A DNA stretch of 64,000 nt from an uncultured Gammaproteobacteria bacterium (GTDB lineage: Bacteria; Patescibacteriota; Patescibacteriia; VMEV01; CAYQCH01). This document shows positions 1-6,824 of this stretch, piece after piece. The stretch is from NCBI GenBank assembly GCA_964503955.1, contig CAZDCG010000002.1:141047-205046 (forward strand), read 5' to 3'. The stretch's first letter is position 1. Every line of letters starts with the position of its first letter. Below the pieces are notes generated by a model. The model worked only from the letters and a program-made list of their open reading frames with translations. It did not search any database and was not told the DNA's origin. Both the position numbers and the translations under genes were made by a program.

Positions 1-3000
1 AAAATGGCAATCCGATTGAAACCCCGGAAGAAATGTTTTACCGCATCGCCAATTTCATGGCGCAAGGAGATAAGAAATTCAATCCCAAAGCGGATGTTAC
101 CGATCTCACCGACAAGTTCTATCAGATGCTCGCCAAGCTTGAATTCGTGCCCGGCGGCCGCGCATTCTTTGAAGCTGGCAATGACCATACCGGACAGATG
201 GCGTCCTGCTTTGTTTTGCCGATTGAAGACAGCCTGGAAGCGATTTTTCAGACCATGAAAGACGCGGCGATCACGCAGCAGAATAATGGCGGAACAGGAT
301 TTAACTTTTCAAAAATCCGTCCAAAAGGAGACAGTGTCAAAGGCGTTCCAGGCGTAGCCGCGGGACCGGTGCATTACTTGCGCAGCTTTGACCAGGCATT
401 CAGCCAATTGCTGCAGGGAGGAAAGCGCCATGGCGGAAACATGGGCGTGCTCAATATTGATCATCCCGACATTGAGGAATTCATCAAGCTGAAGGATTCT
501 GGATCCGGCATCAAGAATTTCAATATCTCCGTTGGCGTAACCGCCAAGTTTATGGAAGCGGTGCGCGCAGACGCGAGCTGGGATCTGATCAATCCCCGCA
601 ATGGCGAAGCCGTGAAAACCGTGCAGGCGCGCTATCTCTTTGACATGATTACCCAGCGCGCCTGGGAATGCGCTGACCCCGGCATGATTTTCCTCGACCA
701 GGTTGCGGCGGGAAATAACAATGCCCATCTGTATGAAATGGTCGCGACCAATCCATGCGGAGAACAGCCGCTTGGCCCGTATGAATCCTGCAATCTTGGT
801 TCGGTTGTGCTTTCAAACCACGTCACACCGGCCGGGGAAGTAGACTGGCCAAAACTAACCCGCACCGCCAAGCTCGCCACACGTTTCATGGACAATATGA
901 TCGAGCTGAACAAATATCCGATTCCGGCGATCGACTATATGGTGCGCCAGACCCGCAAAATCGGCATCGGCGTGATGGGATTTGCCCAGATGCTCTATAA
1001 GCTTGGCATTGGCTATAACTCGGAAGAAGCCGTCAAGCTCATGGAAAAGATCATGAAGCATATCCATACGTCCGTGGAAGAAGAAAGTTCGAAGCTGGCT
1101 GAAGAGCGCGGCGTGTATCCAGCCTGGCAGGGAAGCCGCTGGGAACAGAAAGGCATTCAAATCCGCAACAGCCATTTAACAAGCATCGCGCCGACCGGAA
1201 CCATCTCCATGCTTGCCAATACCTCTTCCGGCATTGAACCCTATTTCAACCTTGTCACCATCCGCCGTTCGTTCTTTAACCAGAGCGGAGACAATTCTGC
1301 TGCCAAAGCGCAGGTGCTTCGCATTGTGGCTGAAGACTTTGAAAAAGTCGCGCGCGAACGTGGATTCTATTCAGACGAACTCATGGACCGCATCGCTGAA
1401 GAAGGAACGCTCCAGGGTTTTGATGAAATCCCGGAAGACGTAAAACGCGTCTTTGTAACCACGCATGATGTTGATTATCAATGGCATGTAAAGATCCAGG
1501 CTGCCGCGCAGAAATGGACCGACGCGGCCGTGTCTAAGACCGTGAATTTGCCGCATAATGCCAAAATCGAAGATGTTCGCAACGCATATATCCTGGCGTA
1601 TGAAACCGGCTGCAAAGGAATCACCATTTACCGTGACGGCTCAAAATCAGGCCAGGTATTAAACCTCGCCGAGAAAAAGGAAGCGAAAAAACCGGAAGCG
1701 GCTCAGCCAAGCCCTGCCGTGCAGATGCCTGTTATTCCCGAACCTGTTTCAGCGCCGGTTGCCGCTTCAGCTCCGCTCATCAAAGGCAGCGACTTAAACT
1801 CAGAAGCGTTTATTACCGACAATGCGTTGACAGTTCTTGAAAAGCGCGCGCTTCGTAAAGACGAACAGGGGAATGTGGTTGAAACCCCAGAAGACCTCTT
1901 CCGCCGCGTGGCAAAATTCGTGGCTGGTCCTGAGGCAGAATACGACGTGCCGGCTCCTCGCATTGCTGAAATCGAAGAACAGTTCTACCAGATGCTTTCC
2001 CGGCTTGAATTCATTGCCGGCCAGCCCTTGCGCAATTCCGACACGAACCTGACCATGTCCGCTTGTCTTGTTCTGCCGATTGAAGATCATATTGAAGGCA
2101 TCATGCAGACGATTTCTGAAAATGTCTTCGCGCATAAGTCAACCTGCGGAACCGGCATCAACTACTCAAAACTCCGCATGAAAGGCAGTGCGGTTGGAGC
2201 CGTCGGGCCGATTGCGGCGGGGCCTGTTCACTTCATGAAAGCGGTTTCCGTAGCGCAGAAGACGATTCAGACCAAGGGCGGACGCAGCCAGGGCAGCATG
2301 GGTATTCTCAATGTGGATCATCCTGACATCGAAGAATTCATCCGCGCCAAAGACAAAGAAGGGGAATTCGACAATATGAATATCTCCGTTGGCGCGACCG
2401 ACGCCTTCATGCGCGCGCTGCAGAATGACCAGGAATACGACATGGTTGATCCGGGTACCGGAAACGTGGCACGCCGCGTGCGCGCGAGAGAGATTTTCGA
2501 CCAGATCGCTGAGCATGCCTGGGTGAGCGGAGATCCGGGATTGATTTTCGTCGACCGCCTTGAAGCAGACAACCCGACGCCGCAGCTTGGCGTGCTGAAC
2601 GCGACCAATCCTTGCGGAGAACAGCCGCTCCTGCCGTATGAAACCTGCAATCTTGGTTCAATCGTGCTTTCCCGTATGGTCAAAGCCGACGCGCAGGGAA
2701 ATCCTGTTATCGACTGGGATCGCTTGGCGCATGTCGTCTACTACAGCGTGCGGTTCCTCGACAACACCATTGACGTAAACAATTTCCCATTGGCCAAAGT
2801 GGAACAGATGTCAAAAGGCACCCGCCGCATTGGACTTGGCGTAATGGGCTTTGCCGATCTGCTCATCAAGCTTGGCGTGCCGTATAACTCGTCTAAAGCC
2901 GTGGAATTGGCTGAAGACCTGATGAAGTTCATTAATGAAAAAGCGCATCAGGCAAGCGAACAGCTTGGAGAGGAAAAAGGATCGTTCCCGTACTTCGATA

Positions 3001-4343
3001 TTTCCGTCTGGCCTGAAAAGGGCGTGAAAGCGCGCCGCAATTCAGCTGTAACTACCATCGCGCCAACGGGGTATACCAGCATTGTGGCCAACTGTTCATC
3101 AGGCATTGAACCGATTTACGCGCTGGCATTCCGCCGCGAGAATTCCATGGGCGGAACCGACCAGTTCGAAACCAATTTCCTCTTCGAGAAAGTGGCGCGC
3201 GAACGCGGATTCTACACGCCTGAAATCATGGAACAGGTGGTTGAGCATGGCACGATCAAAGATATCGCCGGCATCCCGCAAGACGTCAAAGATATCTTTG
3301 TAACGGCCTTTGACACGACTCCTGAATGGCATATCCGTATCCAGGCGGCCTTCCAGAAATATACCGACAATGCCGTCTCCAAAACCATCAATTTCCCGAA
3401 TAACGCGACTGTTGAAGATATCCGCCGCGCGTATATTCTCGCTTATGAACTTGGCTGCAAGGGCGTAACCATTTTCCGCGACGGCAGCCGTGAAGAACAG
3501 GCTTTGCGTCTTGGAAAGAAAGATAAGGAAACACCTGCCGCGGAAATCAGTATCAGCGAAGAGCGCGTGGCCATCACCGAGCCGACCACTATTCATGAAG
3601 CGCGCCAGATTCTTTCCCGCGTGATTGAAAAACGCCCTCGTCCAACCGTTGTCGCCGGCAAAACCTACAAGAAGAAAACCGGCTACGGCGATATGTACGT
3701 GACCGTGAATGACGATATTGAAGGGCATCCATTCGAAGTCTTTGCCACCATCGGCAAAACCGGCGGCGTGTACGCGGCGAAATCTGAATCCATCTGCCGG
3801 CTTGTTTCTCTTGCCTTGCGTTCAGGCATTAAAGTGGAAGACGTGATCCAGCAGCTGCAGGGAATCCGCGGGCCGATGCCGATCTGGGATAATGGCGTGC
3901 AGGTATTCTCTATTGCGGACGCGATCGCGCAGGTCTTGCGCCAGCATGTGCAGGACGGCCAGGCGCAAATGAAGCTGTTTGAAGAGAAAAAAGAACCTGT
4001 CCAGAAAATCAATGTCACTGCTGAAGCAAAACCGCAGACGGAAGCAACTGAAGTTGAAGCCAAGCAGCCAAAGCAGACCTTGATGAACGCGGCAACAAAG
4101 GTGGATGAAAAACCGCGAGAAACCGTGACGGTCAGTATCGCGCAGGTGAAGGAAACCGTAACCGATGTTGTCTCTGCCACAACCAGCGCGCCAACACCGT
4201 CCGCGCAGACAAAGTCCGCAGCTCCAACGCAGAAGTATCAGGAAATGGGGATCTCTACACAATGTCCAGATTGCGGATATGGACTGGAGTTCTCTGAAGG
4301 GTGTCTGCTCTGTCGAGGGTGTGGGTACAGTAAATGTGGGTAG
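1..4343 (+). CDS. nrdJ: Adenosylcobalamin-dependent (class II) ribonucleotide reductase, 5'-partial. It is a fused tandem duplication of two complete NrdJ-like modules plus a Lys/Glu-rich tail and a C-terminal Cys4 zinc ribbon.
   Basis: The N-terminal motif of module 2 (ALTVLEKRALRKDEQGNVVETPEDLFRRVAKFVA) reappears at the window start in frame 3 as NGNPIETPEEMFYRIANFMA, so the gene begins just upstream of the window. Both modules carry the thiyl-radical loop NPCGEQPL and the redox pair (SCNLGS / TCNLGS), PIEDS/PIEDH, and a GPVHY/GPVHF segment. The C-terminal tail is CPDCGYGLEFSEGCLLCRGCGYSKCG. Stop is TAG at 4341-4343. Confidence 0.85.
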   Translation, partial: NGNPIETPEEMFYRIANFMAQGDKKFNPKADVTDLTDKFYQMLAKLEFVPGGRAFFEAGNDHTGQMASCFVLPIEDSLEAIFQTMKDAAITQQNNGGTGFNFSKIRPKGDSVKGVPGVAAGPVHYLRSFDQAFSQLLQGGKRHGGNMGVLNIDHPDIEEFIKLKDSGSGIKNFNISVGVTAKFMEAVRADASWDLINPRNGEAVKTVQARYLFDMITQRAWECADPGMIFLDQVAAGNNNAHLYEMVATNPCGEQPLGPYESCNLGSVVLSNHVTPAGEVDWPKLTRTAKLATRFMDNMIELNKYPIPAIDYMVRQTRKIGIGVMGFAQMLYKLGIGYNSEEAVKLMEKIMKHIHTSVEEESSKLAEERGVYPAWQGSRWEQKGIQIRNSHLTSIAPTGTISMLANTSSGIEPYFNLVTIRRSFFNQSGDNSAAKAQVLRIVAEDFEKVARERGFYSDELMDRIAEEGTLQGFDEIPEDVKRVFVTTHDVDYQWHVKIQAAAQKWTDAAVSKTVNLPHNAKIEDVRNAYILAYETGCKGITIYRDGSKSGQVLNLAEKKEAKKPEAAQPSPAVQMPVIPEPVSAPVAASAPLIKGSDLNSEAFITDNALTVLEKRALRKDEQGNVVETPEDLFRRVAKFVAGPEAEYDVPAPRIAEIEEQFYQMLSRLEFIAGQPLRNSDTNLTMSACLVLPIEDHIEGIMQTISENVFAHKSTCGTGINYSKLRMKGSAVGAVGPIAAGPVHFMKAVSVAQKTIQTKGGRSQGSMGILNVDHPDIEEFIRAKDKEGEFDNMNISVGATDAFMRALQNDQEYDMVDPGTGNVARRVRAREIFDQIAEHAWVSGDPGLIFVDRLEADNPTPQLGVLNATNPCGEQPLLPYETCNLGSIVLSRMVKADAQGNPVIDWDRLAHVVYYSVRFLDNTIDVNNFPLAKVEQMSKGTRRIGLGVMGFADLLIKLGVPYNSSKAVELAEDLMKFINEKAHQASEQLGEEKGSFPYFDISVWPEKGVKARRNSAVTTIAPTGYTSIVANCSSGIEPIYALAFRRENSMGGTDQFETNFLFEKVARERGFYTPEIMEQVVEHGTIKDIAGIPQDVKDIFVTAFDTTPEWHIRIQAAFQKYTDNAVSKTINFPNNATVEDIRRAYILAYELGCKGVTIFRDGSREEQALRLGKKDKETPAAEISISEERVAITEPTTIHEARQILSRVIEKRPRPTVVAGKTYKKKTGYGDMYVTVNDDIEGHPFEVFATIGKTGGVYAAKSESICRLVSLALRSGIKVEDVIQQLQGIRGPMPIWDNGVQVFSIADAIAQVLRQHVQDGQAQMKLFEEKKEPVQKINVTAEAKPQTEATEVEAKQPKQTLMNAATKVDEKPRETVTVSIAQVKETVTDVVSATTSAPTPSAQTKSAAPTQKYQEMGISTQCPDCGYGLEFSEGCLLCRGCGYSKCG

Positions 4344-4353
4344 GGAATAAAAT

Positions 4354-4380
4354 AGAGAGGCCGAAAGGCCTCTCTTGTCA
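4354..4380 (+). terminator. Intrinsic terminator-like hairpin downstream of nrdJ
   Basis: Perfect 9-bp stem agagaggcc-gaaa-ggcctctct immediately after the nrdJ stop. The following U-tract is weak (tgtcaaaa). Confidence 0.55.
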
Positions 4381-4384
4381 AAAT

Positions 4385-5023
4385 ATGTTTAGAAAGCTCA
4401 AAAGGTATGAACTCCCTAGACGATCAATGACCCAGATACAGGGAATGACACGAATCCTCTTTGTTGATGACAAAAGCTTTAGAGTCGTGAATATACTTCA
4501 AAAACAGGGGTGGAGGCATGTAGATAAAGTAAACGATGTAGATAACTTATCAGACGATTTAGTTGTAAACGCTCATATACTTTTCGTCGATATCATGGGG
4601 GTAGGTAAAAGCTTGATGTTTAGGGATGAAGGGCTAGGATTGATTAGAGCTTTGAAAGAAAAATACCCTGAAAAGCGAGTAATTATTTATTCGGCGAATC
4701 CTAACAATAACATTTTTAATGGAGCTATTGATTTAGCCGATGCGCGACTTGATAAAAATGCGGAACCCATTGAATTTATCAACCGAGTTGAACAGTTTGC
4801 CCAGGAGGCGTTTTCTTTCAAGGAATTTTTAGTGCGAATTAAAAGAATCATGTCGGAATATGGCATTGATAAAGAAATGTCTGAGATGGAGAAGGAAATA
4901 GCTCGGATTTGTGCTGATGGCAAAGTGAATGACTCACTGATCCGAAAGTATCTCAAGCCATCTTCTGAGGTGGTATTTTTGCTGCTAAAAGCCTCATTGG
5001 TGGTATTCAATGAAGGAGGTTAA
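4385..5023 (+). CDS. Response-regulator receiver (REC) domain protein with an uncharacterised ~80-aa C-terminal extension. Start codon is uncertain (4385, 4427 or 4445).
   Basis: REC hallmarks are present: TRILFVDD (acidic pair), HILFVDIMG (phospho-acceptor Asp), VIIYSANP (conserved S/T), DARLDKNAEP (Lys). The gene lies in the AT-rich island. Its TAA stop at 5021-5023 is 1 nt before the next gene's ATG. Confidence 0.7.
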   Translation: MFRKLKRYELPRRSMTQIQGMTRILFVDDKSFRVVNILQKQGWRHVDKVNDVDNLSDDLVVNAHILFVDIMGVGKSLMFRDEGLGLIRALKEKYPEKRVIIYSANPNNNIFNGAIDLADARLDKNAEPIEFINRVEQFAQEAFSFKEFLVRIKRIMSEYGIDKEMSEMEKEIARICADGKVNDSLIRKYLKPSSEVVFLLLKASLVVFNEGG

Positions 5024-5024
5024 T

Positions 5025-6035
5025 ATGGGAGATCTACTATTCGTCTGGAACGAAAACGATGAATTGCTGTTCACAAATCAGTCAAGCAGGAATATTTCAA
5101 AAGAACAGGTTTTATCAGGGTGCACTTATCATAGGGATTGCAGAAAATACCAGGAGCGTTCCTCAAAATTTTTGATTTACTTTTGCTCCGACGAAGCTCG
5201 AAAATCCCGTCAATTTTTCTTGAATAAGGTCAATGCGTATCAAGCTGCATTTAAAGAGTTGGAGGAAGTAATTGAAAAAGCTAAAGCTCACGCGCTTGAA
5301 AGCTTTGATTCCCTGAGACATGATTTAAAAACATACAACGGAGTTGCAATTCAAAATTTTTTTGAGTTTATGGGGATAGAAAAGTTGGCTCAAGGGACGG
5401 GCCAACAATTAGAGTTTATAGAACAAAAAATAAAACAGGAACCGAAGAGGGCATCAGAAGTTTTCTTGACGATGTTGAAAGATCAGTTGTTGATGAAAGC
5501 AGAGTTAAATGCGTTCGAAATTCTGCATGAACGAAAAGGGCTTCAAAAAAGTTTTCACGATGTTCATAAATTGCTTTATCAAGGTTTCAATATTTTCAGT
5601 TTGGATTTTCAATCTCGATCGGTCTCTTATGGTTTTTCTGATTATCGGGGTAAAGCTTATATAGACTATCCCTCTGTAAGTGCAGCCATCACCAAAATCG
5701 TAGATAATGTGGTAAAGTTTTCATTGCCAGGTAGCCATGTGAATATTAAATTCAATGAAGATCAGGAGACTGTTCGTGTGGATATAGAAATGACTAGTCT
5801 TTGCGTAAAAGATAAAGAAAGGCTTCTAGTTTTCACAAAAGGATATTCCGGCGAATGTGCTGTGAGATCCTTATTAGCTGGGGATGGTTTAGGTATGTAT
5901 TTAGCAAAGAATTTTTTGATGCTAAACTCGGGAAATCTTCATTTTTATCCTCGCACAGATTCAAAAATTAGAGAGAAATATGACAACCAGTATTATGAGA
6001 AGAATCTTGTTCAAGTAGTGTTGCCCAAAAAATAA
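5025..6035 (+). CDS. Cytoplasmic histidine-kinase-like protein (DHp H-box plus GHKL/HATPase_c domain), with no TM segment and an ~85-aa N-terminal region of unknown function
   Basis: Strong RBS gaaggagg, then 5 nt, then ATG at 5025. H-box DSLRHDLKTY matches the HisKA H-E-L-R-T-P pattern. N-box ITKIVDNVVKFS and G2-box AGDGLGMYLAKNF are present. The G1 box is degenerate. The gene is AT-rich like its neighbour. Confidence 0.7.
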   Translation: MGDLLFVWNENDELLFTNQSSRNISKEQVLSGCTYHRDCRKYQERSSKFLIYFCSDEARKSRQFFLNKVNAYQAAFKELEEVIEKAKAHALESFDSLRHDLKTYNGVAIQNFFEFMGIEKLAQGTGQQLEFIEQKIKQEPKRASEVFLTMLKDQLLMKAELNAFEILHERKGLQKSFHDVHKLLYQGFNIFSLDFQSRSVSYGFSDYRGKAYIDYPSVSAAITKIVDNVVKFSLPGSHVNIKFNEDQETVRVDIEMTSLCVKDKERLLVFTKGYSGECAVRSLLAGDGLGMYLAKNFLMLNSGNLHFYPRTDSKIREKYDNQYYEKNLVQVVLPKK

Positions 6036-6200
6036 GAACTTTTGTGCATGGGGTCCTGTGTAGTAAAGTGAGCTCCCTTAATCCCCTTTCTAATCTAGGT
6101 GGGTAAGGTATGAAAACCAAAGCCCCATTTTCCTAACCACACCCCTATGCCATTCGAACGAATACCAAATAACGAACAGCCAAAACCTCTGAAGGAGCGG

Positions 6201-6824
6201 ATGAGCAGGGGGGAGCTGTCCAAAGAGGAAAAAGAAAGACTCGTGCCCGTGCTTGAGCGCGCGGCGCGGTACGGTTTGCCGCTGCAGCTTCATTCTCCAG
6301 ATCCCAGGCAATTGCCGCGGCTTGATGACGTGGTTGAATGGATGAATAAAACCATCGAAATGCTCGAAAATGATTTGAAACGGGATCATCGCAAACGATT
6401 GCTGGAAAATATGAGCAGGGAGGAACAGGAGCGGCTGCTGGTGCTGTATCAGACCCCGGAGGACGAGCTTGCAAAAATCGGTCTGACAAAAGAAGAAGTC
6501 GACCATATGCTGCCTGAACTCGATCCAAGCAGTCTTGATGAAGCTGAGCTTGAAGATCTGATGACACGCAATGATCATGAGCGCGCAAGGCTTTTGCTGA
6601 AAACCGGCATGATTGATCCTTTCGATACATCGCCTTTGCCTAAACCCGAACAAAAAGACGAATATCTGGCGAAAATTTTTGAATTGGAACAAAAGTTTAC
6701 GGAAGATCGGCACGCGTTTAGCCAGGCGCTGCGTTTGCAAAACGAGCGCGGCCGCTGGTTTGGCCTTGGTCATGAAATGGGCAAGGAGTATTTAGAGCGA
6801 GTGAAAAAAGAGCTTGGAGAGTAG
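6201..6824 (+). CDS. Hypothetical charged (E/K/R/L-rich) protein. The start was chosen at the ATG that follows the RBS ctgaaggagcgg; the ORF extends upstream to 6147.
   Basis: Long ORF with a plausible RBS. No recognisable domain. The antisense ORF 6090..6773 has an implausible composition. Confidence 0.5.
   Translation: MSRGELSKEEKERLVPVLERAARYGLPLQLHSPDPRQLPRLDDVVEWMNKTIEMLENDLKRDHRKRLLENMSREEQERLLVLYQTPEDELAKIGLTKEEVDHMLPELDPSSLDEAELEDLMTRNDHERARLLLKTGMIDPFDTSPLPKPEQKDEYLAKIFELEQKFTEDRHAFSQALRLQNERGRWFGLGHEMGKEYLERVKKELGE

Follow-up and report, generated by a model that had tools for sequence, protein, structure and literature searches.

An AT-rich island at positions 4377-6100 (no strand assigned) of the window, i.e., the whole 64-kb stretch of DNA that was analyzed, comprises two genes and their short flanks, as delimited by GC and GC3. 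Gene 1 (4385-5023, plus strand) encodes a PDC-M43A-like receiver (REC) protein of 212 aa in a variant with a C-terminal tail, and gene 2 (5025-6035, plus strand) encodes a soluble histidine kinase of 336 aa (PDC-M43B). The GC content of positions 4377-6060 was 37.4%, compared with 50.3% across the whole window, in line with the 37-40% given in the first-pass annotation, and this block was the lowest in GC among all same-size stretches of the 64 kb (standard deviation of 2.75 points), as expected if it is compositionally atypical. The contrast was also visible at synonymous positions (GC3 of 0.38 and 0.35 for genes 1 and 2, and 0.51-0.73 for 17 other genes in the window) and was considered real. 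The next gene downstream (6147-6824) was host-like in composition, and the island was thus restricted to the REC and kinase genes. A GC of ~62% had been reported for nrdJ (33-4343), but its overall GC was 52.8%, so that the contrast amounts to ~15 points rather than ~25 points. A GC-rich hairpin (4354-4375; 9-bp stem with six G-C pairs and a 4-nt loop) separates the stop codon of nrdJ (4343) from the start of the REC gene. It had been described as the nrdJ terminator; the hairpin is present, but its T-run occurs on the minus strand only and no plus-strand terminator was called there by a terminator scan, so that read-through from nrdJ is possible. No direct repeats flanking the island were found, and a single inverted pair of 11 nt (4317-4327 with 6134-6144) was at chance level (~18 expected by estimate).

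Gene 1 most likely starts at the ATG at 4385, judging from the alignment of the family N-terminal motif (F..KK.LP.R...EIK) with MFRKLKRYELPRR. A 198-aa version in the protein collection (P0002) starts 14 codons later, at 4427, which would cut into this conserved motif. The receiver domain (residues ~22-143; 4448-4813, plus strand) contains the whole canonical signature of acidic pair, phospho-Asp, Ser/Thr, and Lys. D28/D29, the phospho-acceptor D69 (HILFVDIMG; codon 4589-4591), and K124 were invariant in 31 family members, and S103 was kept in at least 90% of them. Pfam Response_reg matched the product weakly (E 0.014), and the predicted structure has a genuine REC fold, which agrees with the complete REC domain claimed in the first-pass annotation.

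The receiver domain is followed by a predicted four-helix tail of ~70 aa (4814-5020, plus strand), the last helix of which is hydrophobic (VVFLLLKASLVVF). Comparisons of the tail with Pfam, the PDB, and known folds revealed no detectable homologue. Ubiquitin matches in a profile search of the PDB were rejected because their score was a sum of repeats of ~3 bits each. In most type-a members, the C-terminal helix of the tail had a 19-residue KD mean of ~1.0-1.4, and both its length and its hydrophobicity are insufficient for a classical membrane span; in the predicted model, this helix packs against the helical bundle. Two receiver architectures were distinguished, with ~27 loci carrying a hydrophobic helix at the N-terminus but lacking the tail, and ~13 loci showing the reverse. 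No DNA-binding domain was detectable in the REC protein by Pfam, profile, or fold comparisons, and the GerE/LuxR helix-turn-helix that defines NarL/FixJ response regulators was not found in it. The earlier description of an uncharacterized tail with a hydrophobic end and no DNA-binding output thus holds, except that its length is ~70 aa rather than ~80 aa; the wording "effector tail" goes further than a segment with no detectable homology to anything allows.

The TAA stop of gene 1 (5021-5023) is separated by 1 nt from the ATG of gene 2 (5025), and a Shine-Dalgarno sequence, GAAGGAGG (5012-5019, plus strand), can be read within the end of gene 1; the two genes are translationally coupled, as described previously. 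The AF2 model of the kinase had a pLDDT of 93.4 and matched HK853, WalK, and CpxA in Foldseek (E 1e-13 to 1e-16); the gene 2 product is, by predicted structure, a genuine DHp+CA kinase. A word-indexed search with the kinase returned the query alone, and an exhaustive HMMER scan was therefore needed, which yielded a family of 386 representatives (E<=1e-10). The model begins with a beta-rich domain of ~57 aa (5025-5195, plus strand; strands at residues 4-9, 14-17, 40-45, and 49-55), a putative sensor. The family consensus for this domain is CxxCxxxC..C, of which the window kinase retains the later Cys only, i.e., a degenerate cluster; CxxC was found in 75 of 140 kinase representatives. It is followed by the DHp helical hairpin (5208-5528, plus strand; helices 62-116 and 140-168) with His99 (codon 5319-5321). 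The Cys/His-containing N-terminus of 85 aa described earlier is accordingly shorter, since the DHp starts at residue 62. Pfam detected neither PAS nor GAF, and the model has no membrane-segment-like helix before the DHp, which is consistent with the proposed soluble kinase without a sensor of these kinds.

The CA (GHKL) domain (5550-6032, plus strand) keeps N228 and G286/G288/G290; these residues and H99 (RHDLKT) were invariant in 44 kinase family members, which substantiates the H-box, N, and G2 boxes noted before. Pfam HATPase_c scored 24.4 bits, under its cutoff of 26.4, and no other Pfam domain was found. The G1 box, in contrast, reads MxSLxI in the family and DxGxGI in canonical kinases; Met256 (codon 5790-5792) occupies the Asp position and is aligned with the Asp in the SrrB motif DTGTGI. 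Met was present at this position in 100 of 102 scored kinase representatives, and the degeneracy that had been noticed in one protein is therefore a trait of the whole family. In GHKL ATPases, the G1 Asp is normally required for adenine binding; a kinase that lacks it might not autophosphorylate with ATP. The family-wide replacement suggests an altered nucleotide pocket.

Both proteins strongly matched an existing catalog entry, the candidate PDC-M43A/B, which supports the defense idea of the first-pass annotation. PDC-M43 is a two-family cassette listed in Table S8 of Payne et al. (bioRxiv 10.1101/2024.01.29.577857) as a "guilt-by-embedding" candidate, PDCs being candidates that were picked for lying inside BREX, DISARM, or type I R-M systems (bioRxiv 10.1101/2024.01.29.577857). 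The defense idea for this pair was therefore already nominated by Payne et al. and is not new; no paper on PDC-M43 itself was found. The gene 1 product matched PDLC04646 (E 4.8e-52; residues 12-141 on profile positions 70-200 of 203), as well as the other PDC-M43A models PDLC04645 (E 4.5e-34) and PDLC04644 (E 6.5e-32), in which the REC part alone was covered. The kinase matched the PDC-M43B model PDLC04647 (E 4e-67; residues 22-335 on profile positions 28-343 of 347). Apart from one weak mad8 match, no other PADLOC models were matched. The window pair also shares with PDC-M43 its two-gene size, its tight coupling, and its arrangement, with A followed by B on the same strand and adjacent. On the other hand, all three PDC-M43A models contain 44-122 positions before the REC and end directly after it, corresponding to the architecture with an N-terminal membrane helix, whereas the window REC has a short N-terminus and a C-terminal helical tail that lies outside all models. 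The window kinase is 22-31% identical to other family members, and no defense system encloses the window copy; such embedding was found at another locus (L046).

The kinase gene directly followed the REC gene in 46 of 48 retrieved loci, the exceptions being a contig that breaks off within the opening codons of the kinase gene (L007) and a truncated copy (L009), and the two genes commonly overlapped by 4-8 nt. The pair was distributed over 42 species in more than 10 phyla, and in 31 of 32 loci its AT content exceeded that of the flanks, with a mean difference of 11 points. Four plasmids carried it, including two conjugative ones, and on one plasmid it was located between IS3 and Tn3 transposases. 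The horizontal acquisition of a two-gene His-Asp module, as previously suggested, is thus supported by its behavior as an AT-rich unit, its occurrence across phyla, and its presence on plasmids. A phage origin was rejected, as tblastn found no match in 50,697 phage records and 2.9 million viral contigs gave one match, a prophage remnant adjoining a transposase. The pair corresponds to WP_341486241.1/WP_169782976.1 on the E. coli plasmid pZ1322MEC0001-2 and to WP_014620399.1/WP_014620398.1 in Shewanella baltica OS117. A search of 5,426 complete E. coli genomes revealed nothing nearly identical to the copy on the E. coli plasmid.

Homologous pairs often adjoin or sit within R-M, Abi, OLD-like, and KAP-NTPase genes, so that the co-occurrence with defense genes anticipated in the first-pass annotation was observed. 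The gene order at L046 is hsdM-[REC-HK]-hsdS-zeta-hsdR, and a fused type I-like methylase (HSDR_N_2/N6_Mtase/Eco57I) with an S subunit lies directly upstream of the pair at L003. Other neighbors include AbiH and Fic (L061), an OLD-like TOPRIM ATPase (L062), and a KAP NTPase, an MmeI-type R-M, and a type III methylase (L064-66), and on plasmids, DUF262 directly upstream (Burkholderia), NACHT nearby (E. coli), and HigBA (Shewanella). Among 149 neighbor proteins, the raw counts were four each for AbiLi and AriA, and three each for mad2, mad3, MTase_I, and PtuA. Several homologous loci have no defense neighbor, e.g., those of Thiodiazotropha (after nrdAB) and Vibrio.

In the window, the neighbors of the pair are nrdJ, CobA, an AdoCbl riboswitch, and DUF4430 proteins, i.e., B12-related housekeeping, and PADLOC gave no match of note for two downstream genes. 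No defense island surrounds the pair, and the defensive setting implied earlier does not apply to the window locus itself. Ribonucleotide reductase (RNR) genes precede the pair both in the window (nrdJ) and in Candidatus Thiodiazotropha (nrdA-nrdB), and no other locus among the 48 had an RNR large subunit within 10 kb; a functional link to RNR was rejected on this basis, and the adjacency is treated as coincidence or as an insertion-site preference. Five nrdJ relatives from metagenomes (36-52% identical) all lacked the pair, which speaks against a two-component system conserved in synteny, the finding that would have made this an ordinary chromosomal pair. Contigs containing the downstream gene were all 100% identical to the window, island included, this gene had no other homologues, and no relative close enough for an empty-site comparison was found. 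The host acquired the block recently, as an accessory cassette that lies outside its core signaling.

With regard to classical two-component systems, the pair has a DHp with a conserved His and intact N and G2 boxes, but not the G1 DxGxG of HisKA kinases such as HK853, WalK/YycG, SrrB, and CpxA, which is replaced by MxSLx throughout the family; the window kinase also has none of their membrane or PAS/HAMP modules. Classical response regulators contain a known output domain, which the window REC does not, and classical systems are syntenic and belong to the core genome, whereas this family is sporadic and mobile. As the first-pass annotation maintained, the pair does not appear to be an envelope-sensing system with a transcription factor; it is a mobile module without a detectable sensor or DNA-binding domain in sequence or predicted structure. 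An ordinary transcription-regulating system, in which the tail is a highly diverged LuxR/NarL-type helix-turn-helix with nearby or distant targets, is nevertheless suggested by weak NCBIfam matches to RcsB (E 5.8e-8, residues 46-188) and NarL, by the best full-length Foldseek alignments (RcsB, LiaR, FixJ, and EvgA; ~200 columns, E 3e-4), by the four-helical nature that the tail shares with GerE domains, and by the label "NarL/FixJ family response regulator" that homologues carry in some sources. Furthermore, 4 of 21 tails faintly matched the helix-turn-helix family UPF0122 (best E 3e-4). However, GerE gave no match at E<=10, and a profile-profile comparison with a LuxR/GerE alignment of seven sequences, six of them entered by hand, yielded a probability of 0.6% in a run without a positive control. 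Together with the fold comparison, these searches do not support a LuxR/GerE helix-turn-helix. The would-be recognition helix (NAASIASIIQLFL; VVFLLLKASLVVF in the window) is nearly devoid of polar or basic residues, the tail is missing from approximately two thirds of the family, where a membrane helix is present at the N-terminus instead, no conserved neighbor gene was found across loci that could serve as a target, and the pair does not accompany nrdJ in its five distant relatives. An ordinary transcription-regulating system of this kind is very unlikely.

The pair could also be a regulatory add-on that switches neighboring defense genes rather than an autonomous effector, as proposed for the kinase and REC of Ambrosia. 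Ambrosia consists of five genes encoding an XRE regulator, a methylase, an HATPase kinase, a REC-wHTH, and an HNH protein (bioRxiv 10.1101/2025.09.30.679545), and it thereby joins R-M-like enzymes to a kinase and a REC (bioRxiv 10.1101/2025.09.30.679545); the position of the pair between hsdM and hsdS at L046 and beside R-M genes at L003 and L064-66 resembles this defense context. However, the REC of Ambrosia has a wHTH with a proposed role in transcription, whereas the window pair is autonomous and has no detectable HTH. Its neighbors vary between loci and include none of this kind in the window, the cassette occurs alone on plasmids, and its REC, unlike AbrC with its wHTH, has no recognizable DNA-binding or enzyme domain, which makes such an add-on an improbable explanation. 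A real if lesser possibility is that the pair is an accessory module of mobile elements with another role, i.e., addiction or stabilization, competition between elements, or a stress or redox switch at the membrane, which would hitch-hike in variable regions shared with defense genes. The conjugative plasmids, the HigBA toxin-antitoxin neighbor, the position between IS3 and Tn3, the transposase next to the prophage remnant, and the AT-richness at nearly all loci (31/32) fit this explanation, as do the loci without defense neighbors and the Cys-rich domain, present in approximately half of the kinases, which could sense redox or metal instead of phage. Against it, neither protein contains a toxin-like enzymatic domain in Pfam or NCBIfam searches, and the pair is repeatedly embedded in or beside R-M and Abi-type genes, a pattern that was predictive of earlier defense systems.

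The block is therefore best explained as a horizontally acquired, self-contained two-gene His-Asp cassette of the PDC-M43 family, with anti-phage or anti-mobile-element defense as its most likely role, a reading to which we assign a probability of roughly 55%. We infer the defense function from the identity of the proteins, their obligate pairing, their catalytic residues, their mobility, their defense neighbors, and the precedent of Detocs. Detocs is a His-Asp relay that acts as a defense system, some variants of which have membrane effectors. It consists of three genes, dtcA, dtcB, and dtcC, all needed for detection, with DtcB as a stand-alone buffer REC; its kinase is large, with N-terminal TPRs and a phospho-His that is residue 645 of the V. 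alginolyticus protein, and its effectors are PNP in 80% of operons and otherwise REase, TOPRIM, or a TM alpha/beta hydrolase. The pair shares with Detocs the combination of a His kinase with an Asp receiver that has something else in place of the customary DNA-binding output, and the conserved His and Asp that Detocs requires correspond to H99 and D69, both invariant in the family. In contrast, the island has two genes, with the REC encoded first and no stand-alone REC, its small kinase has a beta-rich N-terminal domain and no TPR, and its tail matches no known effector in Pfam, the PDB, or fold comparison. Membership in Detocs was rejected for these reasons, and the Detocs-like logic put forward in the first-pass annotation holds for the replaced output and the conserved His and Asp, but not for the three-gene set, the TPR kinase, or a known effector.

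The cassette keeps the His and Asp that can be phosphorylated, together with the Asn that binds Mg and the lid formed by the G2 box. In the defense reading, the N-terminal domain of the kinase, which in its Cys-rich form may bind metal, would sense an intracellular infection cue, and the kinase would then alter the phosphorylation state of Asp69 in the receiver. The receiver protein would itself be the output. In most family members, it would be anchored in the membrane by its N-terminal helix, an anchor that the four-helix tail with its conserved hydrophobic end may replace in the window variant. Phosphorylation-driven dimerization or oligomerization of the receiver could bring these hydrophobic elements to bear on the membrane or a partner protein, and the growth of the infected cell would be halted, i.e., abortive infection. 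A more specific proposal, which is tentative, is that PDC-M43 is a minimal phosphorelay distinct from Detocs, with a re-engineered nucleotide pocket, an infection cue perceived through the ~57-aa domain, and the receiver as the killing device, whose membrane-anchored helix or hydrophobic-helix tail would be deployed on Asp phosphorylation. The window pair would be the less common C-tail variant of this phosphorelay, and the change of the G1 Asp to Met could shift phosphodonor specificity or permit the sensing of nucleotide pools.

Should PDC-M43 confer protection from phages, no defensive two-component system known so far would be smaller than this set of two small proteins without an enzymatic effector domain, and it would extend the precedent of Detocs to receiver domains that directly drive effects at the membrane or protein level. 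That the whole family has lost the adenine-binding Asp while the rest of the kinase is intact poses a well-defined biochemical puzzle. The annotation of the window is a modest practical result; the REC entry in the protein collection probably lacks the first 14 codons of the gene.

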